A DNA stretch of 64,000 bases from Cyanophora paradoxa CCMP329. Taxonomy: Eukaryota > Plantae > Glaucophyta. Made by a program: the position numbers and the translations under genes. The stretch covers positions 1,240,001 to 1,304,000 of the forward strand of contig QPMI01000005.1 of assembly GCA_004431415.1 (NCBI GenBank), given 5' to 3'. Below the pieces are notes generated by a model that was not told the origin of the DNA, did no database searches, and saw nothing but the letters and a program-made list of their open reading frames with translations. Below, piece by piece: positions 11,486-64,000 of this stretch. The stretch's first letter is position 1; each line of letters opens with the position of its first letter.

Positions 11486-11713
11486 TCTCCGGTGGGGGTG
11501 TGCACGAGGGGGCCGCGACACTCCCTTTTATGTAGTACGTGGCCCGTCCCATCCCCCGGGGCCCTGCGGGAGGGAGGGGGCGCGCGGGGGGAGGAGGAGG
11601 GGGTGGGGCGGCGGCGGGGAGGGGTGGGCGGGGGCCGAAATATGGGTACGTGAAATCTAAGGGCACGTGGCATACGACTGCCCGACGGACCGGGAGTATG
11701 AAGCTGGCCGCGA

Positions 11714-12805
11714 GCTATTTTTAGGTACAGTAGTTTAGTGCTACAGTAGTTGAGTTCCGGGTCCGCTCCCCGGGCGGGCCGGCCGGCGCGACCACGCTTG
11801 CCGTCGCAACGCCGGGTACACGAAATGTAAACCACGGAGGGGGGGGGATGAAGCGTGAGATATTTTGGAGGGGGTGGAGGGGGGTGGAGGGGGTAGGGTG
11901 GGGGGGAAGGGTGGAGAGGGGCGTGGGGAAGGGTCAACGAGGGGAAATCGAAGGGTCGGCGAGGGGTAGCGCCCGACATATACCATGGTATATATGCACA
12001 GTAGTTTAGTACGACAGTAGTTGAGTTCCGGGTCCGCTCCCCGGCCGGCCGCCCGGTCGGACAAAGGGGGGTACCCTGTCTCGTACGAGGGGGGGGGAAG
12101 AAGTCACAGTAGTTTAGTGCCACAGTAGTTGAGTTCCGGGTCCGCTCCCCGGCCGGGGATCCGCGCCTGTTTTAATGTATTACACTATACAATATTATAT
12201 TATCTTTTTTCAATTTCAAATTCAAACCTAGAAAAGATAGAAGATAGTTACTACTGCATCACAGTATACATACATTATCTTTTTTTGGTTTTGAATTTGA
12301 ATTCAAAAATAATATATATAATGTATTATATTGCAATATAATGCGGGCGGAGCCCCAGCCGGGGAGCAGACCCGGAACTCAACTACTGTGGCACTAAACT
12401 ACTGTGACTTCTTCCCCCCCCCCCCCCCCCCCCTCGTACGAGACCGCGTACCCCTTCTCTCCGACCGGACGGCCGGCCGGGAGCGGACCCGGAACTCAAC
12501 TACTGTCGTACTAAACTACTGTGCATATATACCATGGTATATGTCGGGCGCTACCCCTCGCCAACCCTTCGATTTCCCCTCGTTGACCCTTCCCCACGCC
12601 CCTCCACCCTTCCCCCCACCCTACCCCCTCCATCCCCCTCCACTCTCTCCAAAATATCTCACGCTTCATCCCCCCCCCCCTCCGTGTTTTACATTTCGTG
12701 TACCCGGCGTTGCGACGGTAAACGTGGTCGCGCCGGCCGGCCCGCCCGGGGAGCGGACCCGGAACTCAACTACTGTAGCACTAAACTACTGTACCTAAAA
12801 ATAGC
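11714..12805. repeat. ~1.1 kb imperfect palindrome (arms 11714-12164 and 12347-12805, AT-rich centre); candidate replication origin or terminal junction
   Basis: The arms are reverse complements (gctatttttaggtacagtagttt... / ...aaactactgtacctaaaaatagc). Each arm carries three ~45 bp boxes ACAGTAGTTTAGTGCTACAGTAGTTGAGTTCCGGGTCCGCTCCC; a seventh box lies at ~12831-12888. Confidence 0.9.
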
Positions 12806-13003
12806 GCCGGGCCGCGCCGGACCGCCGACCCCGGGAGCGGACCCGAAACTCAACTACTGTGGCACTAAACTACTGTACCTAAAAATAGATAGCCCGGCGG
12901 GTCAGGGGCACGAATCTATAAAAGGAAGTTCCTCGCGTGGTACCCTCCCGCACCTGGGGCCCCTCCCACACCGCCCCCCTCCCCGTTTTACCTCTCGCAA
13001 AGC

Positions 13004-14682: not shown

Positions 14683-17600
14683 TTACTCTATCTGCACGCC
14701 GAGAATATCAAATCCTCGGCGCGGGATAACCAGAAACCGCTTCCGCCGCCCCGAGACGTCGCAGGTCGTAAACGCAGCGTTACCTCCATCGGGGAGCACG
14801 CCCGTTGCATCCGCATCCGAGGTCCAGTGATTTACCTGCCACTGACGAACGGCGGACCGTCCGTTGAGGCCTCCCCGACCGGTGTTGGCCAGGAAAAATC
14901 CCGGGCCCTCGTGGCCCATAAACGTCCACATCTTGAAAATCTCGACGTCCGCCAGCACCCGTCCCGCGGGTCCCGCGCCGAGTATCACGAGCCGTCGCCC
15001 GCCGGGGCCCGCCCTCGTCGCCGCCACGTAGCCGTAAAATTGCCGCACGTCCTCCAGGGTCGCCGCGAAGCGTTCCCGCACCGCCCTCGCAATCTCGGCC
15101 TCCAACGCGCCCCGCGCCTGGGCGGCAAACGTGCGCAGGGCCTCGTCGAGACCCGGGGCCTCGGCGGCGCGGCGTAGCACGTCGTGGCACTCGAACTCGG
15201 CGTCCTCCCCGAGGGCGGCGAGCGTCTCGGGCAGCATGTCCACGTGCGGGTTCGTGGGCGGGTCCGGGCGCGCCGCCGCCTCCTCTTCCTCTGGCGTCGC
15301 GTTTCGCCCCTCTTTCCGTCGCTCCATGGCCGCCTTCTTTGCCCGTTTGACCTTGCGTTCGAGCGCGTCCCGCGCCGCCACGATTGTGGCGGCGAGGTTG
15401 ACCCGACCGAGGCGGCGGGCAAGGGCCTCGGCCCGTTCGACTTCGTCCGTTTCCATCCCGGTCCGCCGCCGCCTCTCTTGGGCGCGCCGCACGATGCACG
15501 CCGCCGCGAAACGGGTTCCCGTCATCAGGGACCGGCCCTCGAGGCGACGGGGCTCATCGTTGCTCTTCGGACCGCCCTTGCCCCCGTTGGTCGCGAGCGG
15601 GACGCCCAGCAGCTCGTGCGCCCACCGCAAGATCTCGTACATGGTCCGGCGGAGCTCCTTGACCGCCATGGCGCACCCCAGGGGCCGCCCGTGCGCGTCC
15701 GCCGTCGCGCCCAGGGCGCGCAGGCGTGCGGCCTCGGTCAGGATCGCGGCGTCGTCGGCGCCCTCCGGAACCATCACGGTAAACGGGGCCGCAGAGCGCA
15801 GCTGGGCAAGCCGTCGGACCCACAGGACCGCCCGCTCGCGCGCCACGTCGGCGGCCTCGGCCAGGGCCGCCGCCACCCGGCCGGAGAGGTCGCGGCCGAG
15901 GGTAAACGGATCTTGTCCCTCGCAGAGCGTCCCCAGCGCCGCCGTCGCCTCGCCCCCGCGGGGCGCGCCCGGCACGAGGGCGGTCCGGAGGGCGTCCCGC
16001 CCCGCGAGCATTGCCCGCAGCTCCTCGAGGTCGACGCGCGCCACGTCCGCGTCCGACGGTGCGGGAACGCCGCCGTACAGGGCGGCGCGGGCGGCGCGGC
16101 GGTGCGCGGGGCGGAGCAGGGCCCTGCGGAGCGCCTTGACCGCCTCGGCCGGGTTGATGGGCCCGCCGTTGTCGGCCTTCCAGGGGTAGCGGCCCGCGTT
16201 GAGGAGATCGGTGCATCGCGACGACTCTAGAGCGGCGAGATACCCGCCGACGAGGGCGGGATCGACGGCGATGCAGCCCAGCAGGGCGGCGGCGAGGTGG
16301 TCCGGGAGGAGCGACCGCGAGAGGGCCTCGACGGCAACGCGCTTGGCGGCCGGACCCGTAACGCACAGGCCTGCGCCCTCGATCACGAGCTGCGCGAGCG
16401 GGGCCGCCCCGGGCGCCCCGTCGGCGTCCGTCCCGTCGACGTCCGCAAGGGCCCGCAGCGCCGGCAGCGTCGCGCAGCCGGTCAGGCGGAGAATCTCTAC
16501 GGCACCGCGCGACTCGTGAAGCAGGTCCCTGTAATCCCGTGAGTGCGACGAGGAGCCGTTCCAGCCGAGCTCGCCGCACATGCCGCCACGGAAGAGCCAA
16601 CGGATCGTGTCGTGCAGGGCGAGTTCAAACTTGCGCTTTCGCCGTCCCGCCGGGTCCTGGGCGTACCTCAGGGCCTCGTCCACGCCAACCTCCTCGCTGC
16701 GCGAGAGCGCCAGCGAGGTCGACGCAAACGCGAGGTCGGCGGCGTGCCGCTCGGCGTCGCAAAAGTGGACGGTCCGGTGGGCCCGCACATCGTTGTATAT
16801 CTCGCTCGCGGGGCACGGCCCGCGGCCGACCGCGCACACCTCCTCCTCGACCGGCAGCGGCCGCGCGCCGAGCAGCGGGTGGGCCATAAAGTGGAGCTTG
16901 TAGGCCTGGTGGAGCGCGTCGATCTCCGCCCCGACCCGCTTCTGGTCGAGAAAGTCGACGACGGCGACTCCGATCCCCATCCCGCCGCGCTTGCGAAGCT
17001 TGACGTCGTAGGCCAGGATGATGGAGCGCCGCGAGTGCGATTCGAGGGCCATCTGACGGGCCTGCGCCTCGAGCACCGCGGCGCCGAGCGAGCCGCGCAG
17101 CCGCGTCTTCCCCCCGAGCGGATTCCGGCAGCTGTAGGAACGGACTCCGGCGTCGATCTCCCGGACGTGTCGCTCGCTGTGGGCCCGCACCTGGGCGCGG
17201 CGGTCCGCCAGGATCTCGTCCGCGCGGAGCAGGTCGGACGTCGGCTCGGCGCGCAGCGAGCAGAAGAGGAGGGCGATCGTGGCGAGGAACCATCGAAGGC
17301 GCGGCGTGAGCTGGAACGACAGGTTCACGTCGCCGAGGGCGCCGCCGTGGACGGCGATGCAGCGGTCGAAGCGGACTCGAGGATCGTTGACGGACGTTCC
17401 CTGGGCGACCTGCGCGCGGTGGGTCGGTACGGGGAAAATAACGGTAAAACGGTAAACGGAGAATGGAGGGGGCGGGGGTGGGCGGACCGTGGAGTTGTAC
17501 AGGATGATATCGGCGTCGGCAAACGCCTCGGCGCTGCGGAAGACGAACCGCTCGGAATCCTCGCATCCTCCGACCACGATCTTGATGCGGATGTGCCTGA

Positions 17601-20205
17601 GTTCCGGGATCGCCTCGAGGACGCTTGCGATCCGAAAGAGCTCGTCCTTGGTCGTGCAGGAGATGACCTGCTTGTCGCCCACGAGGGCGTACGCGGCCAC
17701 GAGGAGGGGTGCGTCCGCAACCTCCGCCGCGGTCCAGGTGTGCCGCAGGTTGCCGCCGTCCCGCTTCTGGTAGAGCAGGACGGACGTGTCGTGCTGCTTG
17801 CGCCGGCGGGCCAGGCGCTCGAGCTCCGCGCGCTCGCCGTCCGCCTCGATCGCGTCGTCCTCGGCGGCGCCCATCGGCTCGTCCTGGATCGTGGAGGTCA
17901 CGCCCTCGGGTCCCTCGAGGCCCGCGTCGAGGAGCTTGAGGAAGAACGTGAGCGTCGGGACGGAAAGGTCCGCGTCGGCGATGAGCGTGACGTACGACTC
18001 GCCGAGCTTTATCGCGATGGCGGCGACGGCCTGCTGCCGCCGATCGTCCTTGGAGAGCGTCGCGCCGTTGGCCAGGATCGCGAGGAGCTTCCCGACCTCG
18101 TCCAGGAACGCGCTGTCGTGCCGGTTTACCCCGCTGTGATCGACAAAGTGACGGGCGCTCTCCAACGTCGTCGCGAGGTTCTCGGGAAACGCTCCCCGCT
18201 CCGGCCAGGGCCCGTGGCTCGCGCTCGAGTACGGGATCCATGCCGCCTCCTCCCGTCCCGAGAGCACGTCCTTGTAGCGGGTCTCGTTAACGAGCTCGTC
18301 CTGCTGCGCCCTCGAGTTGAGAAATACCAAGAGCTTCACATTGTTCCCGTCCCGTCCCGACCGCCCGACGATCTCGGGGTTCTCCTGGAGCAGCTTCCAG
18401 ACGAACGTGGACGCCTCCGTTTTGCCCCTCCCCATGCCCAATGGTAGGGCCACGATGATGCGCCGCGCCCCGGCCTCGCGCCGCGCCTGCACCTCGTTCC
18501 AGATGAGGTCGTAATCCACGTACAGGCTCCCGTCGTTTTCGTCCCGAATCACTCCGTCGACGACGTCGACCAGATCGTCGGGACTCGCGAGGGCATCCGC
18601 CAAGAATGCGTCGATCTCGTCGGGCGGCGGGAGCTGCCGCGCCACGGCGAGCGGCCCGCTGACGGTCTTCTTTTGCTCCTTGTCGAGGGCGGCGTACTCT
18701 TGCGCGATTTCCTTCGGGAGCAGGCTCTTTGACGCGCCGCTCGCGATGTCAATGGCGACCGGAATCGCGGCCTTGGCCGCGTCCTGCAGGAGGTCCGAAC
18801 CCCTGCCCGCCTTGGCGAATCTCCGCCGGGCCGTGGCACCCAGGCGCGCCGTCGTTACGCGCGGGGCGCCCGCGGCGGCGGGATCGCCGCAGAGGCGGCG
18901 GTCCATGTCCCCCTCGACGAGGCGCAGCGCCTCGAGGTGCACGTACGGCGGGTGAAACTCGAAGAGCGCGCTTTTGAGGTCGGAGGAGTCGATCCCGGCG
19001 CCCTGGCGGCAGTGGTAGCACGGAAGGAGGACGCTCCGCTCCCGTACCGAGTCGACGATGAGCTTGCCCGCGCGGCCCGCCGCGCCGCACGCGGGGCACG
19101 GCAGCCGGACCGTGTACTCGAGCGAGTTGGTCCAGACCTCCACGGTCAGCGTCGCCGCCGCGACAGAGGCCGGTCCGCTCGGGGCCGGACGGGCGGACCG
19201 AAACCACCTGCTTGCCGCGTCGGCGCGCCCTCGGGTCGCGATGGCCCCCAGCGCCGCCACGATCATTCCGCGCTCCTCCTGCGTTGCCTGGACGGCGAGT
19301 CCGCGCACCTCCCAGGGCTCTTCCGCGTCGCGGACGGGAAGGGCCTCTGCAAACTTCCGCATGGAGGGCATCATCCAGTTGTAGAACGATTGCCGCGCCG
19401 CGACGCAGGCGGGGTCCTCGGCCCCCGTGTGGATCGTGATGCCCTCGCGCCCCGCCTTGCTGGCGAGCATGCGGTGGTCCGGAATGCGCGTGGCGTGTTG
19501 CGCGAACCGGGCGTGAACGTCGCCCGAGACTGCGGCAGGCCCCGGCATGGAGCACGGGATTTTGCGTAAAAAATTGGGCAGGTCGCTCGTCGTCATTCCC
19601 GCGCGGTGCGCGTAGAGGCGGCCCAGAGGAATGAAGTAAAATCTCGTGGGGCCCTCGTAAAACTCGAAGATGAGAAACCCGCCGGCGCCGTCGTACTCGA
19701 GATGAAAGGGGATCTTCCACTCGCGCAGCTTTTCACACCGCTGGAAGACCGCGTTGGCCACCATCCGAACGTCGGCCCGCGCCTGGATGAGCGCCTCGAG
19801 CGGGGCGTTGCGCACGGCGCCGAGCGCCTTGCACAGGGCGATCTTGTCGTGCTGAAGGCCTTCGGGACGGCAGTGCGAGATGCACATCTGACGTACCAGC
19901 CAAAGTCGATTGTGTGCGGGGACGGCAAAGAGGTTGGCGAAACGACCGGATGGGGCCCTCGCGACCGTTGTCCAGGGCGTCCACTTTTGGTCGGCGAGTA
20001 CGAAAACGGGAGAGTTACCTTGTGACGGGTCCGAAATAGTGCCGGCGGGTCGAGAGGCGCTCTCGGGGATCTTGTCGAAATCCATGGTGTCGGGGTCAGT
20101 CGCACAGTCGGCCTCGGCGGCAGATGCAATGCGCTTGGAAGGTCCCTCGCCGTGGGGCCGGGACGGGCTCCTCGTGCGCTTGAGAGGCGCCGCGGGACTC
20201 GCCAT
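14683..20205 (-). CDS. Large origin-binding-protein-like (herpesvirus UL9-like) SF2 helicase with N-terminal Cys4 zinc ribbon; one in-frame intron
   Basis: Walker A IIVALPLGMGRGKT, Walker B AFLDEV, motif III IADADLS, motif V ILYNST/VAQGTS after removing intron 17410-17487, motif VI FQLTPRLR; CPAC...CYHC. The likely ATG is at 20205, downstream of TATAAAAG (20266-20273). Confidence 0.78.
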   Translation of the reverse strand: MASPAAPLKRTRSPSRPHGEGPSKRIASAAEADCATDPDTMDFDKIPESASRPAGTISDPSQGNSPVFVLADQKWTPWTTVARAPSGRFANLFAVPAHNRLWLVRQMCISHCRPEGLQHDKIALCKALGAVRNAPLEALIQARADVRMVANAVFQRCEKLREWKIPFHLEYDGAGGFLIFEFYEGPTRFYFIPLGRLYAHRAGMTTSDLPNFLRKIPCSMPGPAAVSGDVHARFAQHATRIPDHRMLASKAGREGITIHTGAEDPACVAARQSFYNWMMPSMRKFAEALPVRDAEEPWEVRGLAVQATQEERGMIVAALGAIATRGRADAASRWFRSARPAPSGPASVAAATLTVEVWTNSLEYTVRLPCPACGAAGRAGKLIVDSVRERSVLLPCYHCRQGAGIDSSDLKSALFEFHPPYVHLEALRLVEGDMDRRLCGDPAAAGAPRVTTARLGATARRRFAKAGRGSDLLQDAAKAAIPVAIDIASGASKSLLPKEIAQEYAALDKEQKKTVSGPLAVARQLPPPDEIDAFLADALASPDDLVDVVDGVIRDENDGSLYVDYDLIWNEVQARREAGARRIIVALPLGMGRGKTEASTFVWKLLQENPEIVGRSGRDGNNVKLLVFLNSRAQQDELVNETRYKDVLSGREEAAWIPYSSASHGPWPERGAFPENLATTLESARHFVDHSGVNRHDSAFLDEVGKLLAILANGATLSKDDRRQQAVAAIAIKLGESYVTLIADADLSVPTLTFFLKLLDAGLEGPEGVTSTIQDEPMGAAEDDAIEADGERAELERLARRRKQHDTSVLLYQKRDGGNLRHTWTAAEVADAPLLVAAYALVGDKQVISCTTKDELFRIASVLEAIPELRHIRIKIVVGGCEDSERFVFRSAEAFADADIILYNSTVRPPPPPPFSVYRFTVIFPVPTHRAQVAQGTSVNDPRVRFDRCIAVHGGALGDVNLSFQLTPRLRWFLATIALLFCSLRAEPTSDLLRADEILADRRAQVRAHSERHVREIDAGVRSYSCRNPLGGKTRLRGSLGAAVLEAQARQMALESHSRRSIILAYDVKLRKRGGMGIGVAVVDFLDQKRVGAEIDALHQAYKLHFMAHPLLGARPLPVEEEVCAVGRGPCPASEIYNDVRAHRTVHFCDAERHAADLAFASTSLALSRSEEVGVDEALRYAQDPAGRRKRKFELALHDTIRWLFRGGMCGELGWNGSSSHSRDYRDLLHESRGAVEILRLTGCATLPALRALADVDGTDADGAPGAAPLAQLVIEGAGLCVTGPAAKRVAVEALSRSLLPDHLAAALLGCIAVDPALVGGYLAALESSRCTDLLNAGRYPWKADNGGPINPAEAVKALRRALLRPAHRRAARAALYGGVPAPSDADVARVDLEELRAMLAGRDALRTALVPGAPRGGEATAALGTLCEGQDPFTLGRDLSGRVAAALAEAADVARERAVLWVRRLAQLRSAAPFTVMVPEGADDAAILTEAARLRALGATADAHGRPLGCAMAVKELRRTMYEILRWAHELLGVPLATNGGKGGPKSNDEPRRLEGRSLMTGTRFAAACIVRRAQERRRRTGMETDEVERAEALARRLGRVNLAATIVAARDALERKVKRAKKAAMERRKEGRNATPEEEEAAARPDPPTNPHVDMLPETLAALGEDAEFECHDVLRRAAEAPGLDEALRTFAAQARGALEAEIARAVRERFAATLEDVRQFYGYVAATRAGPGGRRLVILGAGPAGRVLADVEIFKMWTFMGHEGPGFFLANTGRGGLNGRSAVRQWQVNHWTSDADATGVLPDGGNAAFTTCDVSGRRKRFLVIPRRGFDILGVQIE

Positions 20206-21631: not shown

Positions 21632-24001
21632 CTACGTGGCGGCTTTGAGTCGCTTGGACGGGGGCTCGATGGGAGCTGCGCCGCCACCGACCATCTCGTA
21701 CGCGTGGTCGGTGCAAAAGTCCGTGCAGTTTTCGCGGAGGCAGGCCCGCTTCACGGATCCCTTTTCCAGGTTGAGCTTGAAGTAAATGGGCCCCGCGCCC
21801 TTGTGCGGGTCGATCTTGTGCGCTTTGGGATGGTTGGGGTTGGTGTGGAACATGGTGCACACGAACCAGCTCGAGTTCCACGCGCAAAGAAGGCTCCCGT
21901 CGTCGATCCTAGCTTTGAATTTCGGCCCGCGCCTGTCGTCGGAATCGCGCATCCCGTAGGCCTCTAGCACATCCTTCTCCTCGTCCGTCCCCATGACGTC
22001 GAAGAAGCGTCGTCGAAACAGTTTCGAGCACAGGTAGCGCCGGAGCAGATCCCTTCCGCGCTCCTCCTGCTCTCGAGTGCAGGGTCCGTACTCGACCTTT
22101 TCCGACTCCTGTTGGCCGGGCACTTTTACTCCACCTCCGACCTTGTCCGATCGTGCATACTTTTGAATCCGCTCGAGCGCCTCTGGCGGGAGCGGTGTCG
22201 GCGTCCAGCCCGGCAGGGGCCGCATGCAGGCGGCCTGGAGGAGCGGAAGGGAGAGGGTACGGAGCCGCCCCCCGTAGCGCGCCTCGTCGGGCTGCCCGTC
22301 GGGTCCCACCGCCGCGAGGAGGCCCATGACGCTGCTCGGGACGGTCTCCCACCACACGGACGGCTTGGCGCCGGCGATGTTGCTCCGTTTTTCGCGCTTT
22401 GCCGCGCCGAGCATGCGCAGGCTGTGTTTCGCGCTCTCGAGTGGCTGGAGGTCCAGCTTTCCGCCGGCCCACAGTCCGTCCTCGCTCCGGAGCGCCCTCG
22501 CAATGGCCGCGTTGTTCGCGCAGCTGGTCTTCAGGTCCGGAAACGCGATGTGCGTCGACTTTCGCGCCGGGTTGCCCAGCGCGAGGATGCTGCAAAATTC
22601 CGCCGAGATCCCCAGCTTGGTCCGCAGCACCGACTGGATAGCCCGCAACTGGTCGTGCGTCTCGACGAGCGCGCCGTCGATGTCGAGCTTGAGCCGAACC
22701 GCGGGGTCCTTGTCTTCCCGGATCTCGTGCGTGTACCAGGGCGTCCTGGTGTAAATGCAGAGCTGATGATTGCGGAGGATGTAGTCGTTGCACCGACGGC
22801 GAAAAGCGATCTGCTCCGGCTCGGGGAGGTCCTTGGGCGTCACCGAGAGGTAAAATTCCTGGGGCCGCTGGAAGAAGAATTCGCGGTGGGACGGCGGCTC
22901 CTTGCCCTCCTTGTCCAACTTTCGACCGTACCACTGGTCGTACTCGCAGTCCGCATCCCTGACGAACACGCATCCCTCGGTGACCGTGAGGCTGCCCCGC
23001 CGGTACACCTTTTCCTCGGCGTCGTTGGGCGCCTTGCACTCGTCCGCCGGCGCGGACGCGACGGCCGTGGGCTCGGATCCGTCGGCAGCCGGCGCCGTCT
23101 TCGGACCCGCCGGACCGAAATCGGCGTGGTCCATGGGCGGTCCCGTGAGCGTCTTGCATTGACCGCGTTGAAGCGTGGCTTCGAGGAGCCGGTCGCTCAG
23201 AACCCCGAACCAGAACAGCTTGATCTCGTTCCGGAGCGACGGATCCGGGTCCCGTTCGGGATTGCGCGAGAGCGCGGCCCGCGTCGGCCAGAAACCGCTG
23301 TCGGGGTGGACCTGCACGTCGGGCTTCACGCCCTTGCGGTTCACAAAGGTGCTGGTGTCGATGAGGTCGACGACCTTCCTCGGCTCTACACCGGGCGCTT
23401 CGACGACGGCGTCGATGACCTTGGACCCGAAGAGGTCGCGAAGCCAGGAGACGGCGTCCTGCATCCACTTTCCATCGCGCGGGACGATGGCAAAGCTTCG
23501 CGAGACGCTGCGCTCGTGGTCGAAGAGGTTGAACGCGACGCGAAATCCCTTTTTGCCGGTAAAGTAGCGCAGGACGGTCTGCGCTCCGAGCTGCCGCGCC
23601 CGACGGCACACGAGCTCCGACGCCGCGTCGGCCTGGGCGAGCTCGGGGATGGCGGCGCACGCGTCCCCGACCGTCGCGCCGTCGGGCGCGTCCTTGAGCC
23701 ACGCAATCAGCTTGGGATACGAGCCGTGCTCTTTGTCGAACGCGTCAAAGTCGATGACGGTCATGAGATGGAGGCGTTCGCCGGTGCCGTCGGAGCGCTC
23801 AAACTGGGGGAAAATGAGGCACGACATGGTGAGGGTCGAATTCAGCTGGGTTTCCGACGGAATGGGTCTCCAGCAATCCTTTGCCGCGTACCAGATGTCC
23901 GTCCCGCACTTTCCCGTCGCAACGGATCGCTGGTAAGCCTGGTGGGCGGTCCGCGGCTGCGATTTGGTGCGCATGCACCAAACGGGGGTGGGCAACGCCA
24001 T
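21632..24001 (-). CDS. Archaeo-eukaryotic primase (PrimPol/NCLDV-herpes clade) with C-terminal zinc finger and an extra N-terminal AEP-like domain
   Basis: C-terminal domain: LKLDID (motif I), KSTHIAF (motif II), KLDLQP...SLRMLGAAK (motif III) and a C-H-C-C finger (CTMF...H...IYFKLNLEKGSVKRACLRENC). N-terminal domain: VIDFD, YFTGKKGFRV and LIDTSTF. Confidence 0.8.
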   Translation of the reverse strand: MALPTPVWCMRTKSQPRTAHQAYQRSVATGKCGTDIWYAAKDCWRPIPSETQLNSTLTMSCLIFPQFERSDGTGERLHLMTVIDFDAFDKEHGSYPKLIAWLKDAPDGATVGDACAAIPELAQADAASELVCRRARQLGAQTVLRYFTGKKGFRVAFNLFDHERSVSRSFAIVPRDGKWMQDAVSWLRDLFGSKVIDAVVEAPGVEPRKVVDLIDTSTFVNRKGVKPDVQVHPDSGFWPTRAALSRNPERDPDPSLRNEIKLFWFGVLSDRLLEATLQRGQCKTLTGPPMDHADFGPAGPKTAPAADGSEPTAVASAPADECKAPNDAEEKVYRRGSLTVTEGCVFVRDADCEYDQWYGRKLDKEGKEPPSHREFFFQRPQEFYLSVTPKDLPEPEQIAFRRRCNDYILRNHQLCIYTRTPWYTHEIREDKDPAVRLKLDIDGALVETHDQLRAIQSVLRTKLGISAEFCSILALGNPARKSTHIAFPDLKTSCANNAAIARALRSEDGLWAGGKLDLQPLESAKHSLRMLGAAKREKRSNIAGAKPSVWWETVPSSVMGLLAAVGPDGQPDEARYGGRLRTLSLPLLQAACMRPLPGWTPTPLPPEALERIQKYARSDKVGGGVKVPGQQESEKVEYGPCTREQEERGRDLLRRYLCSKLFRRRFFDVMGTDEEKDVLEAYGMRDSDDRRGPKFKARIDDGSLLCAWNSSWFVCTMFHTNPNHPKAHKIDPHKGAGPIYFKLNLEKGSVKRACLRENCTDFCTDHAYEMVGGGAAPIEPPSKRLKAAT

Positions 24002-29890: not shown

Positions 29891-29912
29891 CTGCGCGCCC
29901 AGACGCGCGCCG

Positions 29913-43050: not shown

Positions 43051-43083
43051 TCTGCGCGAGTCCGAGGCGTTTGTTAATTCTTG

Positions 43084-49599: not shown

Positions 49600-49678
49600 C
49601 GCCGACGGCGCCGTACCCTTCCGACCCGTACCCGGTGAGCACCGGAAGCGTCGCCCGGCGCGTCTATCGAACGCGGCT

Positions 49679-54647: not shown

Positions 54648-54689
54648 TTTGACTTTTAAAAATGCAATAACATCAAAAATAATTAGCTT

Positions 54690-55510
54690 CAAGGATGGGA
54701 AGCTTGTGGCATGTCACTGATCATGATCATGAGTCACTTTAACGTTTATAGCACGTATACTAGTTAAAATAATCATATCGATATCAACATGGCATGTCAA
54801 TGAGTCACTAATTAATATAAGTAATGATCGGATCATGATCGCTTGAGCTCGGCTGCATACAGCTGCAGCTGCAGCGTAGTATCATGATCATAATTATATA
54901 ATCATGACTCAGTGAATTCGAAAGCCTTCAATTGAAGGCTTTATAAATAACTTAGTAAGGCATATAGATATCATAGTATCATGATCATAATCATGATACT
55001 ATTAAAGCCTTCAAGGCTTCAAGGCCTTACTCAAATCATTGAATCATAGTATCATGATCATGATCATAATCATGAATCATGAAAGCCTTCAAGGCTTCAA
55101 GGCCTCAGTCATGTATATATTATGATAGATATCATGCATGATCATAGTATCATGATCATGATCACGAAAATCTTCATGATCAAGGCCGGGCTAGAACTTT
55201 TGGAAGGCATTTTGTCATATAGGCAGACTTTTGGATATAGCTATCATAGTATCATGATCATGATAATCATCATGAATTCGAAAGCCTTCAAGGCTCCAAG
55301 ACCTTGGGCCTAGCTATAGTACCTTATCATGAAAGCCTAATTATATATAAGTATACGCGTGCCGCAGTGCGTATGCAACCTATCATAGTATAAGCTTCAA
55401 AATTCGAATTCATGATACGTTACATGTACATGTACATATCCGCGGCCGATGATCCGATGATCGATATCATGATATCGGTCATGATCATCAAAGTACTAGT
55501 ACTAGTACTA
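54690..55510. repeat. AT-rich block of short degenerate palindromic repeats
   Basis: TCATAGTATCATGATCAT four times (~54971, 55044, 55142, 55243) and AAGCCTTCAA(GGCT) four times (~54922, 55005, 55083, 55282); dense CATG/GATC. Confidence 0.85.
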
Positions 55511-55530
55511 CCCCGCACTAGGCCCGTAGT

Positions 55531-55850: not shown

Positions 55851-57771
55851 CCCAGCCCTTGAGGTACGAGGTGATCGTAGCCGGCGGCGATGAAAGACTC
55901 GTGCACCAGGGCCCTGCGAGGGCCCGGGCGCGGGCTGGGGGCCCCGGATCCGCGGGACCGCCCGGCGGCGCGAGGCAGGAGGCGCACCTGTACGCGAGAC
56001 GGGCCCCGCGGGTGCCGGGCGTCCCTCTAGCGGCCCGCGGGAGCGCTGCGCGCGGGGCACTCGTTAGCTCGGGCGGATTCCGGGAGGGCGGGCGGGCCCG
56101 CCGTCGGCCGACGGTACAGCTTTGCACCTGGGGTCGGCACGTCGCACTCTTGCGCAGCGCTGCTCGTCGGCGGCGACATCCTGCAGCCGGGCGCGGCGCG
56201 GGCCGGGGATGCCGCGCGCGCGAGGCGGACTAGGCGCCGCGGACGACGGCGATGGCCAGCGATCCCTCCGTGCAATCTCTGCCCCAAGAGAGCATAGCTA
56301 AGCATCTACGGGGCGCGCGGCGGGGCGGGGGCGGGAGCGCACCACTTGCGCGGGGCCGGGTCTCGGCCTAGGCCCGCCGGACCGCGACCACGGGCGTGAA
56401 AGAGGTTCCCGGGCCCCACCACGACCCGCGGGAGGCCTCCTTGCACGCCGCCGGGCCGGCCACGCCGCTCGATCGATCCGAGCAGAGACGGGCGGCCCAC
56501 CGGCACCGCCCCCGACTCGGGAGGGAGCTAAAGAGCGCGGAGCCGCACGGGCGGCGCGGCAGACGGCGCGCGCGGGTCGCGAGGTCCTGGGGCGCCCTGC
56601 GGACGGGTGAGCGACGGCAGACGCTTAGAACCGATTGCCGTACGAACCCCGGTTGCATTGGGCGCAAACTTAACGAGAATTTACGCGGCGCCGCTCGCCC
56701 CGCAGAGTTTAGTATGTACCCCCTCGACGGAGGCTGCCGCGGAGCGAGGCGAGCGGCGCTCGGATGCGGCCCCCGCGCGGCGTCGAGGGACTAGAAATCG
56801 TGCGCTACGCCGTACTTGCGAGCGCTGGAGCGCTCCGCGCGCGCGTTTCGGTGCGCGAGGGGCGCGGATCAAATTGCTCTCTTCCGCGGACGGCGCGACG
56901 TAGCGCGAGCCCGTGCAGCCGGAGAGGTCCAAAACCGGGATCCATACCGTGGGATCACTAGCAGCTCGTCGCCCACGCGCGCGCGGGCCGCGCCGGGCGA
57001 CCAGGCGCACTCCACCACGGGACCCTCTGAGAGGCCGAGACGCCCGATCGCGGGCCGACGAGCGGCTCCATAAGGTGGGGCGTGCACTACGATACCGCAC
57101 GCCGCCGCGCCGGGCCGGACGGCGCCGGGTCGGTCCGCACTAGGTCCCGGGCCCCGGGTTCGGGGCATCGGCCTGACGGTGCCGCGCGGTACCGGCCCAC
57201 GAATACGATAGCGTGCACTCTACACGAGAGATTCCGGGAGCGGGTACCGAGCCGAGCGCGTTTTCCTTCTAGCCAGGAGTCATTTTACCAGACGCCATAC
57301 TGGGCGCCGGACGCAATCTAAACGATATACGGCCCGCCTTCGCCCGGTACCAGGCGACGTATCCGCATCTGCCGGACCAAAAGTACTAGATTAAATTGCT
57401 AGTACCGAGCCAAGACCCCTCTCCGAGGTCCCGGTCCGGCGCCGCCCGGCGGCCCCCGAACCCTAGGCCCCCTCACGGCGGCGCTCTCCCGGCCCGCCGC
57501 CCCCGCCGCCCGCAATGCATGCGCAGCCCCGTCGTACTTTTGAGGCCTCCCGCCCCCCGCCGCGCTCTCCTGCGAGGCCGGGCCGGCCGGTCCCCCCCGC
57601 ACGCCCGCCCTTCCCGACGGCCGCCCGACGCCGCCCGCTGTCCCGCCCCCGCGCCCCGCGCGCCTCGCCGTCCCTTGTTACGCATAAAGAAGAGCGCGTG
57701 CACGGGCGGGGACCAAAAGGTGAAGGGCCCGGCAGAGGGGGGAGGGAGGGCCGCGCGGCCCGGCCCGGCCC

Positions 57772-60700
57772 ATGTCGGTCCGCACCGTCCGCGACGGCTG
57801 GGAGCGGATCGAGTTCCGCGGGCCGTTCGGCGATGATGTGCTCCACGTCTTCAAGTCGCCCGACGGCGGGCCCGTCGTGGCGTCTGCCGAGTTCATGAGG
57901 GTGATGAGGAACGCGCCGGGCGAGGCGGCGGAGGAGGCGGAGCGGGTCCTAGCGTCCCGCTACGGCGCGGCGGCGCGGCCGCTCACCGGCTCCGAGGTCG
58001 AGGCGACGATCTTGTGCTGGGAGATGCTCGGCATCGCCCGCCGCGGCGACCTGCACCCCGTGCACAACCCGCCGCGCGTCCTGAACCTACGCGTGTGCGA
58101 GGAGGTGGCCTCGGACGCGTGGGAGGCGAGCGAGAGCCCGCGCCTGCAGGCGGCGTTTGCGCGGTTCGCGGCGGCGATCGAGAGGCGGCGGGCGGAGACC
58201 TTTGAGAGGGTCGAGGTCGCCGTGCTCCGCGCCGAGGGCCTGCGATTCCACGCCTTTCGGGTGCGCCGCATCGAGCACCCGGAGACGACGTGGTACGTCC
58301 CGCTGGCGAGCGTCTCGGCCGCCGTCTACGGCGACGCGCGGGACACCCAGTCGGTCCGCCGCGAGCTCGGGCGGCGGCACCCCGAGGTCGGCGAGGGCTC
58401 GCCGTTCCTCTGGCGCGCCTCGTCCAAGGCCCTCGGAAAGGAGCGCTTCCGCCTCATCTGCCGCACGATCGCTCGCTTCTGCGGCCTGGGGAACGAGGCG
58501 GGCGAGGCGCACCGGACGGCGGCGCGCCAGTGGCTCTTCCTCTCGATCGAGGCGACCGAGCGGCTGCTCTTCAAGCTCCCGGGCCGCGAGCCGGCGCTGG
58601 CCGTCGCCTTTCGCCGCGCGCGGCTCGCGCTGATGGGGGCCGATCCCGCCGAGATCGACCTCGCCGCCCCGATGCCGCCGCCGGTCCGGCGGCTCGCGCT
58701 GTTCGGCCGCAAGGACTGGCTCCAGGACGCCCAGATCGCGAACATCGTGTGCGCCCGCCGCCCGCCGCCCCGGCCCGTCCCGCCACGGCGCGCGCCGACG
58801 CCCGCGCCCGCCCGCCCGCAGCACGCTCCTGCTCGTCCGCGCCGGCCCCCAGATCCGCGTCCGCAGCCTGTACCCGGCCTCGTCCGACATCGTCGCCTCG
58901 AACCTGCGGCGGTACGCGAGGTTGGAACCGGAACGGAGGAAGAGGAAGAGCCTGGGCTACGCCTCGGAGGGTGGAATCGTTCTATGCCCCGTCAGCATCG
59001 GGTACGGGCGACGGACGTCGGCGCGGAGCTGGAGCACCGGCGGGCACTGGTAAAATTGCGCGTACCCCTCCGATTGTACCCCTAACCCCCACCCCTCCCC
59101 TCCCCTCGCAGGATCCTACTCGCCGTCGACGGCGCGACGAGGTCCGCCGGGACCCCCCGTACCCCCCTCCCCTCGTCCGACCCGAAGGAAACTGCGTACC
59201 CCTCGTGCGCAGGCGCCTGCGTTGGTTCGACTCGCTCGGGCTCGCCCCGGACCGCGCCGTCGAGAGGGCCGCCAAAAAGGCCTTTCCGGCGTTCTCCTGG
59301 GGCGTCGACACCGTCGGACGCCTGCAGACGGACTCGTTTCAGTGCGGGATCTGGTGCGGGAGGGGGTGGACTCCCCCTCGCGCCGCGCGGCGCCCGCTCA
59401 CCGGGCCGGGGATGGGGACCGCAGGGTGTGCTTCTTCGCCGAGTCGATCATCAACGAGGCGGCGACGCAGTTTGGATGGGAGGAGCACCTCACGGGAGCC
59501 CGCGCCCTCGGGTTCCTGCGCGAGGGCGGTCAGGATCGGGACGAGTTCGCCGCCCGCAACGGCCGCTTCATCGCGAACCGGCGCGAGGCGTTCCGGAACC
59601 TCTTGGAGTCGGCCCTCGTCGACCGCAGCGCGACGCGGCTCTTTGAGGAAGAGGACGAGGACGTGGACGGGGAGGGCATCGTTTTACCCGCCTCGGCGGG
59701 GCGGGCCGAGGCCGCCGCGATCCCCTCGTCCTCTTCCTCGTCGTCCTCCGCGTCGGACGAGGCCGAGGGCGAGGGCGGAGGGGAGGAAGAGGCGGAGGCG
59801 GAGGGCGAGGGCGAGGGCGGGGCCGCCGACGGGGGCGGCGAGGGCCCGTCCGCCGGGCCCGTCGACCGCGGCCAGTTTACGCTCGCCGCGTCGTCCATGG
59901 GCGCCACGCTGCGGGCGCAGTTGGCCGCGTTCAAAACGTGGCGAACGGCCGTCCTCGAACCTTCGCGGCGCGGGGCGCGCGTGGAAAAGGACTCGACTCT
60001 CTCGAACGACCTGTGCAACTTTCAGCGGCTGCTCGGCTACGTCAACACGCGCGAGACGATCGACGGCGAGCTCACCCTGGACTCGGTCCTCGGGCGCATC
60101 GATGCGGCCGAGATCGTGATGCGCTTCCTTCGGTACCTCAAGGACGAGCGCGGGGCGGCGCCCCTCACGCAGGTCAACTACCTCTCCTCCATCCTCTCGG
60201 TCGCCGGGTTCCTCCACACCCGCTCCGGCGCGCCGCCGGGCAGCGAGTCGGACCTGCAGCGCGCGCTCAGGAACCTCAAGGTGCAGACGTGCGCGCCGGC
60301 GGCGGCGGGGGGACTCACCGAATCGCGTCGCAGGGCCAGCTGCAGACCGAGGCCCGGTCGGCGCGCAAGTGGGCCGCGCGGCAGGTGTGGATCGAGTACG
60401 AAGAGGTTCTGGAGGGTCGAATCAAGGCCTACGAGGCGTTTCGGGCCGAGGAGGGCGAGCGGGCGCGGGCCAAGCACCTCCGGGACGCGCTCGCCCTCGG
60501 GATGCTCTCGCTGTGCCCCGCGCGCGTCGCCGTGGTGAGGAAGCTCCGGATCGGCGACACGCTCACGCGCGAGGGCGGCCGGTGGTGCCTCTCGCTGCTG
60601 CGGATGCGGGATGAGCCCGGGGACGGCGAGGACGAGGGGCGGCTGGCGCACAAGACGGCCAAGATCCACGGCGCCATGCGAGCGACGCGTCCCCGCCCGC

Positions 60701-62261
60701 CCGCCCGCCGCCGGTCCCAAGCTGACGCCCCGTCCCTCGCGCAGCGTCGTCCCGATCGCCGAGCCGCTCCAGGAGCTCTTTACCCAGTACACGGAAGAGC
60801 ACCGGGCCGCCCTCCTCGCCGACGGCGCCCGGGGCTCGGACCCGGGCTTTATCTTCTGCAAGTACGACGGCGGGCCGATGAGCGTCACGGGATTTACCGC
60901 GTACTTTAAAAAGGTGAGCGTACCTCGGTCCCCCCCGTCGGCGCGCCCCGACGACGACGACGCCCGCCGCCGCCAGGCGACGCTCCGCTGGACGAAGAAG
61001 GAGATCCCGCCGCGCCTCCTGCGCAGCGTCGTGAGCACGTGGGTGCGGGACAAGAGCGCCGAGGGGGCCATCACCGCCGACGTCGCCGACGGGATCATCC
61101 GCGGCACCGCCAAGCTGCTGGCCCATACGCCGCGCGTCGCGACGCTCCACTACGACGTGCACGCCAAGCAGCGCGAGGCGGCGACGGCGGCGGCCTGGTT
61201 CGAGCACGCCGCGCTCGAGTACGAGGCCCGCCGCGCCGAGCGGGACCGCCCGGCGACGCCGCCGGCGCTCGAGGGGCCGCCGGCGCCCAAGGGACCGTCG
61301 CCGCGGAAGCAGAAGAAGGCGGCGGCGAGGGCGCCGCCGGAGCGCGCGAGCGCGATGGCGGTCGAGGAGCTGCCGCCGGCGCCGCCGCTCCCGTCGCCCG
61401 ACTCGCCGCTGCCGGGCGGGCGGGCCGCCGCCGTCGGCGCCGCCGTCCCGAGCACCGCCGCCAAGGGGGCCAAGGGACGGGACGACGGCGGGAGCGAGGA
61501 AGAGGACGGGGGGAGCTCGGAGGAGGAGGACGAGGAGGACGAGGAGGATCCCGGCGACCGCGTGCGCCGCCCTCCTCTTCCCCCCACAGGATCCCGCCCG
61601 CCGCGCCGCCGCCGCCCCCCGACGCCCCCCGCAGATGGAGCGCGAGCTCGCCGAGGCCGAGAACCGCTGGTGCGCGGCGTGCAGGACGATCTTCGGCACC
61701 CGAAAGGGCCTGGCGCGGCACCGCGGTCACTGCAAGGGCGCGGGGACCCCGGACGGCAAGATCGTACCGTCCGGGGTGCCCGTCGCCGTGCCCGCCGAGA
61801 TGCCGCCGCCGCCGCCGGTCGCGTGGCACCTGCGCTGGATCAGCCCGGCGCCCCTCCGGCCGCGCGGCGTGTACGCGGCGCTCGCCTCGCGCGGCGGGGA
61901 CCCGCTCCCCACGATCCTGGTGGCGCGCGCGCTCCTCCCCGCCGTGCCGCTCCCGTCGGGCCAGTACGAGAGCCGCCTGACGCTCCTGCGGCACTACGGC
62001 TCGCTCTACGTCGCCGTGACCGAGGGGAGCGCGGCGGACTACACGTACCCGTCGGGCCTCGTCGAGGTGGAGTACCGCGGGAGCAACGGCGCCATCGACC
62101 TGGTGACGCGCTCCAGCGAGATCGCCCAGCGCCTCGGCCTGGGGCCCGCCGCGGCGCCCTCGCCGCCCCCGGCGGCCGAGCAGGACGGCGGCGGCGCCGT
62201 CGTGCGCAGGACGGGGCGGCGGCGCGGTCGGCCCCCCAAGTCGCTGCGGCGCGGCCCGTGA
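57772..62261 (+). CDS. Multi-exon fusion protein: BRO-N-like + Ulp1/SENP (C48) cysteine protease + acidic linker + tyrosine recombinase + Pro-rich + C2H2 zinc finger + AT-hook
   Basis: Ulp1 motifs DWLQDAQI, HW-ILLAVD (His ~59045), WFDSLG and LQTDSFQCGIW. Recombinase motifs LSLCPARVAVVRKL (Arg I), HKTAK (Lys), PPRLLRS (Arg II) and AKLLAHTPRVATLHYD (His, Tyr). CAACRTIFGTRKGLARHRGHC zinc finger; RRRGRPPK AT-hook. Introns at 60281-60333 (GT-AG), 60678-60744 (GC-AG) and 60914-60976, plus several at 58.7-59.4 kb. Residual indels remain near 61.6 kb. Confidence 0.8.
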
Positions 62262-64000
62262 GGGGGGGACGGGCGGGTGAAACGCAGAAAGAGGGGGTCC
62301 CCGCGCGGCGCACGGCGGGACGGCGCGATGGAGGTGGATCCGACGGCCCGGCCGCCGACGCCGCGCCCTCCCATCGGCCTCCCGCTCGCCCCGCCGGCCC
62401 TCGGAGACGTCCCGCCCCAGGGAACCGTGCTGCGCCCGATCGCGAGGATCCTGCCGCCCGTCGGGCCGTCGGCGAAGCGGGAGCGGCGCGAGCGGGGAGG
62501 CTGGGCGGGCGGGACGGCGCACCCCGCACTCTATGGCTTTGCCGCGCCGGCGCCGCCGCGCCAGTAGGATCCCGTCCCCCGCCTTTGCGCACCTGCTGTC
62601 GAGCGTGAGAAACGAGTAAATAGATGCGGGGCGGACGGGCACCCCGCCAGAACGACGCGCGTAGCCATGGTTGAGGGGGACGGCGGGGCGCAGCCTGCAG
62701 CGGCAGATCCGCCAATGGAGGAAAAGGAAGCGACGGCGGCGACGGGGACAGAGTCCGGCGGGAGCGCGCCCGACCGGGCCCCCGCCGCCGAGGGGAAGAA
62801 AGAGCCCGCCACGCCGCCGCCGTCGGATCGCGAGCCGACGCCGCCGCTCCGCACTCCCGGCAAGATCCTTCCGCTCCACCTAAGGTACAAGAAGCAGGTC
62901 GGCCGACGCGGCGCGCCCCGCTCCCGCCCCCGCCGCCCGCGCCCTCACCTCGTTGCCGCGCAGCTGGTGACCTACATCATCCGGAACGAGGCGGCGAGGC
63001 CCGTGGCGTACGTGGGCTCGACGAGCGACATGCAGCGCCGCCTGCGCGAGCACAACCACGGTCCGAGGCCGCGTGCGCCGCGCCGCGCCCTCCATCCGAA
63101 CCCGCTCGCTGCGCAGGGAGCAAGTTCAGCTACACCAAGGGCAAAGGTGCGCCGGCCCCGCCGGCCGGCCGGTCGCGCGCGCGCACGCGCACCGCATCCA
63201 CAACGCCTCGGGCAGGTCCGTGGAGCGTGGTGTGCATCGCGCACGGCTTCAAGAGCGTGGCGGTGTGCCGGGCGTTTGAGCGCTCGGTCAAGGACGGCGG
63301 CGGAGGGCTCGAGCGCAAAAAGGGCGTCATGAGGCGTCTCGCCGCCGAGTTTAGCTCGCCGGAGACGCCCATCGCGGTCGAGGAGCTGGCGGAGGAGGAC
63401 GCGGGGTCGAGCTCGCAGGGCTCGGGCGAGGGCGGGTAGCCGGCCGGCGGATCGCTGGATCCACGCGGGTACCTGCCGGGATGCGGGAGCGCGTGAGCCG
63501 GCGGCCGGGCGATGACCGGGAGCGGCGAGGCGGCGGGGCGCGGGGGGGGGCGCTCCCCGCGATATAGCTAGCGTTAGCTAAGGTGTGAACCTCTTTTAGA
63601 TGCGATTGCTACCGATTGAAAGGGGAACGGACGCACGGGCTCGCCGGCGATGCCGCGGGCCGCGGCGGATCGACGGGGGAGATGGAGCGAGGCGGCCAAG
63701 GGATGCGCGAGCGTACGGGCGCCGAAAGGGGGTGCACGGCGCAGCGCTGCCGCGGAGAGGGGCGCCGCATCCGTAGCACGCTGTACCCCCCTCGGGCTCG
63801 CCATCGAAATCGATCTCGGCGTGCGGCCCGCCGCGGGCGTTAAGTTTGTTGGATTCCGGATCTATGGCGCCTCCAACCTCGCATTCGTTTGCGTCTATCG
63901 CCCGGCGCCCCTTTGCGGCCGAGGGCGGCCTCGCCCCGTCGTGCCGCCCGGGTCCGGCGGCCGTGTGCGGGCGTCGGCGCGTGTGGATTCGCGGTCCTGC
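59454..64000. repeat. Direct repeat copy 2 (matches 1-4504)
   Basis: Same ORF set shifted by 59453 (150..1085 corresponds to the 3' part of 59222..60538; stop 3953 corresponds to 63439). Confidence 0.97.
62667..63439 (+). CDS. SLX1-like GIY-YIG endonuclease (duplicate copy)
   Basis: Same sequence as 3187-3953. Confidence 0.8.

Follow-up and report, generated by a model that had tools for sequence, protein, structure and literature searches.

A predicted Ulp1-like protease–tyrosine recombinase fusion in a 59-kb repeated unit of Cyanophora paradoxa

A locus of the glaucophyte Cyanophora paradoxa appears to join a SUMO-type protease to a tyrosine recombinase, which raises the questions whether the two are encoded as one protein, what kind of element carries it and what the protease could do there. 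The window, i.e., the whole stretch of DNA analysed (64,000 nucleotides of contig QPMI01000005.1), had received a first-pass annotation, whose start (57772) and stop (62261) for the gene were correct. The features discussed here are collected in Table 1.

Table 1. Positions of the features in the window, with the basis of each assignment
Feature	Position	Strand	Basis or detail
Second copy of 59454-64000, defining the unit	1..4504	+	0 substitutions, 43 single-base homopolymer losses
Head-to-head inverted repeats of ~550 bp	11706..12893	.	14 copies of AACTACTG, AT-rich centre
Candidate origin-binding helicase, 1840-aa intronless ORF	14683..20205	-	P-loop and weak CyRepA1-type match, E 0.034
789-aa intronless ORF, primase-like motifs by eye	21632..24001	-	PPL4, E 0.24-0.36
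Perfect 12-6-12 loxP-shaped site	54973..55002	.	Inside AT-rich repeat block (about 54650-55500)
Spliced antisense transcript, likely non-coding	57663..60254	-	Joints in RNA-like runs
Antisense introns	57884-57986, 58144-58199, 58458-58512, 58904-59199	-	Splice joints
Antisense introns, continued	59322-59401, 59516-59578, 59909-59960	-	Splice joints
TATA-like ATAAAG element, 89 nt upstream of ATG	57680..57692	+	Sequence
Ulp1-like protease/tyrosine recombinase gene	57772..62261	+	Predicted 1318 aa
Exons 1-5	57772-58748, 58822-59049, 59112-59141, 59213-59353, 59425-60280	+	Predicted
Exons 6-9	60334-60677, 60745-60913, 60977-61561, 61635-62261	+	Predicted
N-terminal region, aa 1-302, BRO-N-like by eye only	57772..58677	+	36% identity to relative P0002
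C48/Ulp1-like protease domain, about aa 303-520, exons 1-5	58678..59608	+	ESM Atlas and active-site residues
His401; Asp418; Gln450; Cys456	59045-59047; 59229-59231; 59325-59327; 59343-59345	+	Spliced model
Acidic, Ser/Gly-rich linker between protease and recombinase	59609..59850	+	Sequence
Core-binding (SAM-like) domain of recombinase	59851..60280	+	PF02899, E 0.009-0.011, below cut-off
Recombinase catalytic domain, exons 6-8	60334..61190	+	Atlas, phrog_1, active-site residues
R808; K851; R928/R931; H965; Y974	60523; 60652; 61013/61022; 61124; 61151	+	Spliced model
Zinc-finger-like motif C-x2-C-x12-H-x3-C	61671..61733	+	Sequence; no Pfam match
AT-hook-like RRRGRPPK motif	62217..62243	+	Sequence only
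GIY-YIG nuclease gene, directly downstream of fusion gene	62677..63440	+	Pfam PF01541, E 1.3e-6

One predicted protein with two active sites

The architecture proposed earlier holds for a predicted spliced protein in which both active sites are intact, but not on the argument given for it, namely that the fusion is independent of splicing. Eight short introns (53-73 nt; seven GT-AG and one GC-AG) have to be removed to join nine exons. The open reading frame 59222..60538, which had been taken to connect the two enzymes, lacks the QCG motif (in another frame, and requiring removal of intron 59354-59424) as well as any recombinase catalytic residue, the first Arg requiring removal of intron 60281-60333; it links only the post-Cys helix, the acidic linker and the core-binding domain. 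Of 72 splice combinations tested, only two kept the frame open, and these are distinguished by a 9-nt shift of a single donor; third-position GC is 0.88-0.98 in all nine exons. Moreover, an independently made database model, P0001 (1292 aa), has most exons in common with the predicted gene. An ATAAAG-type element like that upstream of the gene also precedes several other genes of the 59,453-bp unit described below.

A second C. paradoxa protein, P0002, encoded on a different contig, has the same domain order, with identities of 36% in the N-terminal region, 37% in the protease, 54% in the core-binding domain and 37% in the catalytic domain. Conserved in P0002 are the Asp, Gln and Cys of the protease and, in the recombinase, the first Arg, the Arg-x-x-Arg, the His and the Tyr, while its gene model is devoid of the segments with the protease His and the Lys. 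Since one frame-keeping splice path carries both active sites and a relative shares the domain order, we regard the predicted protease-recombinase fusion as well supported. Word-based protein searches returned P0002 and the protein of the window itself, but nothing else. Scans of viral contigs and metagenomes, sensitive to close relatives only and poorly suited to intron-rich genes, gave no relative; PDB sequence searches with the fusion, helicase-like and primase-like proteins and searches of plasmids and phages gave nothing informative, and Rfam gave no match.

C48 proteases carry a His-Asp-Cys triad in this order, with an oxyanion Gln six residues before the Cys. All four residues, as claimed in the first-pass annotation, are present in the spliced model (H401, D418, Q450, C456). 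In the ESM Atlas, the protease part scored 0.95, with 28 of 30 matches in C48-bearing clusters, and its neighbours are eukaryotic Ulp1/SENP clusters. Pfam C48 (PF02902) was not matched by the split exons, P0001 or P0002, queries that were split or missed the His exon.

The recombinase part scored 0.97 against the Atlas, and one of its three best clusters consists entirely of Preplasmiviricota. Five of the six positions of the tyrosine-recombinase signature R-K-HxxR-H/W-Y are kept (R808, K851, R931, H965, Y974); the His of HxxR is replaced by Arg928, and an Arg also stands there in P0002. Family matches were weak (phrog_1 integrase, E 0.005; XerC/XerD, E 0.005/0.01), all under the cut-offs where these are given. 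The Pfam domains Phage_integrase, Crypton-type GCR1_C and DUF3435 found no match on the split exons, P0001 or P0002, the latter two being models without the His exon.

The additional domains proposed earlier are seen only as motifs. The N-terminal region looks BRO-like by eye, but had no Pfam or PHROG match, and its AlphaFold model was unusable (pLDDT 36.5), the fold search finding no match at E 0.001. The presumed C2H2 finger is a motif spaced C-x2-C-x12-H-x3-C that Pfam does not match, and the AT-hook is recognizable as RRRGRPPK, but both are absent from the gene model of P0002.

Seven minus-strand GT-AG joints were found in all four RNA-like runs, from two samples; these runs (X15-X18) were treated as RNA from the GT-AG joints alone, none being recorded as such. 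They outline a spliced antisense RNA, overlooked in the first-pass annotation, whose 5' end was not found. A coding role for it was rejected, its stop-free reading frames of 347-405 codons comparing with a shuffled median of 375. No sense joint of the fusion gene occurred among the 15 joints listed of 52 (eight of the 15 were set aside as chance matches, with sides of only 20-22 nt), and sense introns 1 and 8 were retained unspliced in RNA contigs. The fusion mRNA thus stays a prediction. That all joints seen over the gene are antisense would also fit a gene-model artefact, i.e., adjacent genes or pseudogene pieces for protease and recombinase, with the antisense RNA as the real product of the locus. 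We consider this highly improbable, as post-Cys helix, linker and core-binding domain lie within one 856-nt exon (59425-60280), P0002 shows the same sequence of domains although only 36-54% identical, and the antisense reading frames are no longer than shuffled controls.

A 59,453-bp unit with joined inverted repeats

The gene belongs to a unit of 59,453 bp, the start of which recurs at the end of the window, and a circular and self-copying 59-kb element is likely. This repeated unit and its joined inverted repeats had been missed in the first-pass annotation. The repeats meet at TACTG-catca-CAGTA (12252-12266) and, judged from their sequence, are candidates for joined element ends and/or a replication origin. 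One unbranched 273-nt contig spans this centre in four of four DNA runs; the assembly may have been built from these runs, which are not independent of it. No host junction was seen at the centre, so integration there stays hypothetical. We attribute a low depth of the right arm to the two arms having collapsed in the assembly graph, where arm variants swap in X5 and X9, rather than to biology.

The loxP-shaped site at 54973 is a second candidate recombination site. It is the sole AT-rich site with 12-13-bp arms in the window, and 0, 0 and 6 of 200 block shuffles gave one; its chance is raised by the surrounding block, which is made of palindromic TCATGA units. The fusion gene is flanked by the GIY-YIG gene and a non-coding block; measured around the circle, ~14 kb would separate it from the inverted repeats, which it does not adjoin.

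The unit further encodes cargo of the chromatin and ubiquitin types (a histone H3 variant and SET-like, TET/JBP-like, TFIIB, F-box, RING and BTB proteins); half of its genes are intron-rich. Two copies of AACTACTG (20431 and 20450) lie upstream of the helicase-like gene, for whose product the AlphaFold model was unusable (pLDDT 37.3) and the fold search had no match at E 0.001. Pfam and PHROGs, libraries that may miss diverged capsids, matched neither a capsid nor a packaging ATPase in the ORF pieces scanned, where several ORFs are left without assignment, and reverse transcriptase and RNase H were not matched either; no DDE transposase was detected in the unit.

Could the unit be a stable nuclear plasmid that never integrates, with the palindrome serving only as origin and the recombinase resolving dimers or amplifying copies near 54973, like Cre, Xer or Flp? 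The unbranched palindrome centre would fit, as would the recurrence of the repeat upstream of the helicase-like gene, as expected for an autoregulated origin-binding protein, and the singular, rarely shuffled-up 54973 site. However, the TCATGA units favour such sites, and the element seems to have passed through chromosomes, judging from its intron-rich cargo and from the location of the diverged P0002 on a separate contig. We hold this alternative to be rather unlikely.

Another option is a chromosomal tandem array or the remnant of an endogenous DNA virus (PLV- or giant-virus-like) with capsids lost or diverged, in which the fusion gene would be a silenced integrase. Assembly overlap alone leaves a circle and a tandem or collapsed array indistinguishable, and the contig depth of about 2.2-2.5 times that of contigs picked up by chance is a hint, not a copy number. 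The all-Preplasmiviricota cluster and the methylated giant-virus insertions reported in C. paradoxa (PMC12344493) point the same way. Against this stand the intact long ORFs and active sites, the lack of capsid or packaging ATPase matches among the ORF pieces scanned and a size outside the 15-30 kb of PLV insertions, and we judge it clearly unlikely.

Possible role of the tethered protease

The best overall reading, to which we give an even chance, is that the 1318-aa fusion acts as integrase/resolvase of the element and that its tethered SUMO protease lifts host control. The element would copy itself via its own primase-like and helicase-like proteins and be mostly a low-copy circle in the sampled cultures, while the recombinase would excise, integrate or resolve it at the point where the inverted repeats meet. 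For PLVs, inverted repeats beside primase-helicase and recombinase were proposed as both origin and recombination site (PMC11296320). By taking SUMO or a similar tag off the recombinase, or off chromatin proteins where the recombinase acts, the protease may release a host brake comparable to that of SUMO on yeast Flp, and the antisense RNA would keep the fusion gene quiet. Among tyrosine recombinases, SUMO control is known from Flp, whose level, DNA binding and cleavage are reduced by SUMO (PMC6594588). Loss of Ulp1 in yeast also deregulates Flp according to the same source, and the effect therefore has no simple direction. Further points against this reading are the lack of sense joints among those listed, the missing Pfam C48 and Phage_integrase matches, the Arg in place of the HxxR His, the segments absent from the P0002 model, the lack of a host junction at the palindrome centre, the second candidate site at 54973 and the distance of the gene from the inverted repeats.

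From the sequence, deSUMOylation appears the most likely role of the protease and self-processing of a polyprotein a less likely one. A protease acting on targets other than SUMO, which either frees the recombinase at the linker or, as deubiquitinating or deneddylating enzyme, tunes F-box, RING and BTB proteins, would fit the several GG dipeptides of the long acidic linker and the RING and F-box proteins of the unit; Ulp1-like proteases of polintons and PLVs are described as maturation proteases (PMC4981718). The Atlas neighbours are, however, eukaryotic Ulp1/SENP clusters, the linker is poorly conserved in P0002 and no capsid substrate was found, so that such a role would be quite a surprise.

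Relation to known elements

Starships are large cargo-carrying fungal elements with a DUF3435 captain tyrosine recombinase, and the present unit resembles them as a large eukaryotic element with cargo and a tyrosine recombinase, but has no DUF3435 match, long inverted repeats, its own replication-type genes and a non-fungal host. In DIRS/Ngaro elements the recombinase is accompanied by reverse transcriptase and RNase H, neither of which was matched in the ORF pieces scanned here. The yeast 2-micron plasmid, of about 6 kb, relies on Ulp1 and replication provided by the host, and its inverted repeats lie on opposite sides of the molecule, whereas they abut in the 59,453-bp unit. It is likewise a nuclear circle (likely here) with a tyrosine recombinase (PMC6594588).

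Ulp1 domains are indeed passengers of Mutator-type DDE transposons, as stated earlier, and also of Ginger1 (PMC2836005). In Ginger1 the domain is joined to the transposition enzyme, as in the fusion here, and in VANC/KIU to an anti-silencing protein (PMC2836005, PMC13317346). Ginger1 and Mutator/KIU, however, work by DDE chemistry, and Ginger1 has its protease at the C-terminus, whereas here it precedes the recombinase.

Closest to the fusion are oomycete Cryptons: Kojima and Jurka (2011; PMC3212892) describe CryptonF-2_PS and relatives, as well as some CryptonS, as eukaryotic elements in which a tyrosine recombinase occurs together with a C48/Ulp1-like peptidase, and CryptonF-2_PI has inverted repeats of 602 bp, compared with ~550 bp here. 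In that source, Cryptons are listed with 0.35-6 kb and mostly 4-6-bp terminal direct repeats, in contrast to 59,453 bp and ~550-bp inverted repeats here; the peptidase of CryptonS is an additional protein, and the passage on CryptonF-2_PS is silent on a fusion. The exons, P0001 and P0002 gave no match to GCR1_C, a domain of CryptonF, and the unit has replication-type genes. The premise of novelty is thus weakened, and the fusion is a variation on a known pairing, while the one-protein form and its large carrier appear to be undescribed.

With PLVs the unit shares inverted repeats, a recombinase, primase/helicase-type genes (weak assignments here), a GIY-YIG gene beside the recombinase and a Preplasmiviricota cluster among the Atlas neighbours (PMC10120064, PMC11296320). 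It is two to four times larger, outside their 15-30 kb, and differs in having no capsid or packaging ATPase detected among the ORF pieces scanned, intron-rich genes (half of the total) and a protease joined to the recombinase.

The carrier element is consequently more novel than the fusion. It is possible, if doubtful, that it represents a new class of capsid-less nuclear replicons of eukaryotes, of ~60 kb. Such circles would bring along their origin, primase and helicase, a recombinase that carries a SUMO protease, and anti-silencing cargo; they would be kept latent by a spliced antisense RNA and exist in a glaucophyte as at least two diverged families.

Flp, the only well-studied tyrosine recombinase of eukaryotes, is known to be held back by host SUMO, and the Ulp1 domains found repeatedly in unrelated transposons have no settled function. 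A single chain that holds both recombinase and protease, together with two candidate target sites and a likely host that can be cultured, makes this question testable with two point mutants. To our knowledge, nuclear plasmids occur naturally in few eukaryotes; a 59-kb circle maintained stably in a glaucophyte would, if true, represent a novel type of replicon that might serve as a vector.

The protease-recombinase fusion gene

The predicted Ulp1-like (C48) protease and tyrosine recombinase belong to a real, apparently intact fusion gene, which is very probably translated as one chain. The strongest argument for a real fusion under selection is its conservation at the distance of P0002, a gene model of Cyanophora paradoxa from EukProt and the sole relative from word-based protein searches. 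Here, the regions follow the same order (N-terminal 36%, protease 37%, core-binding 54% and catalytic 37% identity), and the Asp, Gln, Cys, first Arg, an identical Arg-x-x-Arg, His and Tyr are kept, the His and Lys segments being absent from the gene model. Scans of viral contigs and metagenomes, which reach close relatives only, gave no further one.

The first-pass annotation had considered the fusion independent of splicing, which did not hold: ORF 59222..60538, translated as given, lacks both the Cys motif and the first catalytic Arg, the Cys exon is read in a different frame, and the catalytic domain of the recombinase starts only beyond intron 60281-60333. What stands of the unbroken frame is a single unspliced 856-nt exon, in which the helix following the Cys leads through the acidic linker to the core-binding domain; this still ties the protease end to the recombinase start. 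The fusion itself is borne out by P0002 and by an in-frame splice path: among 72 splice-site combinations tried for three uncertain introns, two gave an open frame, differing by 9 nt at one donor. Of the eight short introns (53-73 nt), seven are GT-AG and one is GC-AG, and third-position GC is 0.88-0.98 in all nine exons. The host is probably C. paradoxa or a close relative, the genome of this alga being described as rich in GC and in short introns (PMC6704402). P0001, the database model of the locus (1292 aa), has mostly the same structure as our 1318-aa model, but the end of exon 2 with the His and the end of exon 6 with the Lys are missing from it, and it retains intron 7.

The spliced model contains the complete triad and oxyanion Gln proposed earlier (predicted His401, Asp418, Cys456 and Gln450) as well as the predicted recombinase residues Arg808, Lys851, Arg931, His965 and Tyr974, with Arg928 at the His position of the HxxR motif, all assigned by the motif patterns of the two families. 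The protease part is probably active. Profile libraries were weak here, with no Peptidase_C48 match in Pfam for split exons, P0001 or P0002, and weak recombinase matches of P0001 (Pfam Phage_int_SAM_1, E 0.009; PHROGs phrog_1 integrase, E 0.005, residues 665-952; XerC/XerD, E 0.005/0.01). In the ESM Atlas, 28 of 30 matches of the protease part (0.95) fell in C48-bearing clusters, and the neighbours of the recombinase part (0.97) were integrase clusters alongside unnamed ones from eukaryotes and Preplasmiviricota. A BRO-like domain, formerly assigned to the N-terminal region, found support neither in profile searches nor in folding; the proposed finger and AT-hook are motifs only, and their C-terminal region has no counterpart in the P0002 gene model.

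The 59-kb unit and its candidate sites

Window positions 1-4504 repeat 59454-64000 (0 substitutions, 43 single-base homopolymer losses), the signature left when a circle is over-assembled or a tandem array collapses, here with a unit of 59,453 bp. ORF frameshifts in window 1-14000 are likely assembly errors; this stretch shows many single-base homopolymer losses against short-read contigs.

Features of the unit (window coordinates)
Feature	Position	Strand	Details
Histone H3-like gene, diverged, intron-containing	4890-5430	-	Pfam E 1.2e-5; PDB H3 matches
Tandem arrays, 236/212/178/246 bp	5756-7620, 24650-26501, 29525-29899, 33869-35427
Palindrome	11706-12893		Facing ~550-bp arms, AT-rich centre between
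TFIIB homolog, intronless	27767-28561	+	Pfam E 2e-8
Lower-GC multi-exon region	40800-47030	-	F-box E 0.001, AAA ATPase E 2.8e-6; gene boundaries uncertain
SET-domain-like gene, multi-exon	47870-49600	-	Motifs by eye
TET/JBP-like dioxygenase, multi-exon	52800-54630	+	Pfam Tet_JBP E 0.063, one exon
AT-rich block (37% GC)	54650-55500		ATCATGAT-type palindromic units; between TET/JBP-like and fusion genes
Second candidate site	54973-55002		Perfect 12-6-12 inverted repeat
112-bp direct repeat, 95.5%	55520-55631 and 55755-55866		Upstream of fusion gene
Fusion gene	57772-62261	+	Nine exons, eight introns, 1318 aa (predicted)

The sequence AACTACTG occurs 16 times in the window, 14 times within the palindrome arms and twice upstream of an intronless 1840-aa ORF, which has a P-loop and weakly matches CyRepA1 replication proteins (E 0.034). 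A 789-aa ORF shows primase-like motifs (PPL4, E 0.24, weak). In 4/4 DNA runs examined (taken from 14 with full coverage, all possibly the source of the assembly), one unbranched 273-nt contig spans the palindrome centre, and no loose end lay there among the 24 listed (218 more exist); thus, joined repeat ends exist and no integration was seen at this centre. Contig depth (0.73-0.77 of the flanks) and flank depth (2.2-2.5x that of 4-7 chance-placed contigs per run) are hints only. For the centre as crossover site, the chances appear evenly balanced. A rival option is a never-integrating plasmid resolved at 54973. The second candidate site there sits amid palindromic units; shuffling by blocks of 2, 6 and 12 nt yields such a site 0, 0 and 6 times out of 200. 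The tandem arrays, located at module borders, could be partition or origin sites; the 236- and 246-bp arrays are ~80% alike.

The unit falls into two halves, intronless genes at 8500-33560, whose ATG is preceded at a distance of 44-89 nt by a TATA-like ATAAAAG element, versus intron-rich, host-style genes at 35550-63440 and 1-5600. Family matches comprise TFIIB, RING, GIY-YIG, histone H3-like, AAA ATPase and F-box proteins, with a weak TET/JBP match (E 0.06); SET-like and BTB-like genes were identified by eye only, the SET-like one giving no Pfam match. The TET/JBP-like protein is a candidate DNA demethylase, and the H3-like protein, whose loop 1 is two residues longer, could be a centromeric-type variant for element segregation. 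TFIIB homologs occur in large DNA viruses. An endogenous virus remnant or array is a further rival reading of the unit; neither capsid nor packaging ATPase was detected (Pfam, PHROGs) among the ORF pieces scanned, several ORFs being without assignment.

Spliced antisense RNA over the fusion locus

Four runs presumed to be RNA (two samples, two studies) were inspected across 56000-63700, and figures on splicing refer to 15 of 52 joints listed. Seven of these are long-sided CT..AC joints and mark a transcript of the minus strand with canonical GT-AG introns, five of them entirely within sense exons; six have sides of 48-255 nt in 4/4 runs, and the seventh has 156 nt in three runs but 29 nt in the remaining one. 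The other eight, with sides of just 20-22 nt, were discarded. No plus-strand joint was among the 15, assembled contigs losing rare forms, and contigs run unspliced through sense introns 1 and 8. As antisense ORFs (347-405 codons) do not exceed shuffled controls (median 375), the spliced RNA over the fusion gene in the sampled cultures is likely non-coding antisense. RNA-like contigs also cover parts of 56000-57000.

Possible function and relation to known elements

In the most likely reading, the fusion protein would serve as integrase or resolvase of the element, working at the joined repeats, while the tethered protease could strip SUMO or a related tag off the recombinase or off chromatin proteins at the binding site. 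The precedent is yeast Flp: sumoylation is reported to lower its level, DNA binding and cleavage, and Flp is deregulated in ulp1 mutants too (PMC6594588). SUMO as the predicted substrate has an even chance; a self-processing or deneddylating protease is the rival. The chromatin- and ubiquitin-directed cargo would fit a silencing-resistant element in a host which methylates repeats and viral insertions (PMC12344493).

The unit does not fit the features tested for Crypton, Starship and DIRS elements. Inverted repeats, recombinase and primase-helicase are shared with PLVs, which, however, have capsids and 15-30 kb (PMC10120064, PMC11296320); a PLV identity of the unit is at best putative. Ulp1 domains are described at the C-terminus of Ginger1 transposases (PMC2836005) and, without known function, in KIU/VANC anti-silencing genes (PMC13317346). 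Neither a one-chain Ulp1-recombinase nor such an element in Cyanophora was found in the full texts searched (subscription journals, Repbase and bioRxiv supplements excluded), which leaves part of the proposed novelty standing. Yet Kojima and Jurka already report a C48 peptidase for CryptonF-2_PS and its relatives, where it may be fused or separate, and for some CryptonS, where it is an additional protein (PMC3212892). The pairing of Ulp1 and tyrosine recombinase is consequently known, the one-protein form being an apparently new version of it. What makes the gene interesting is chiefly its 59-kb carrier, apparently not described before, and the putative antisense control.
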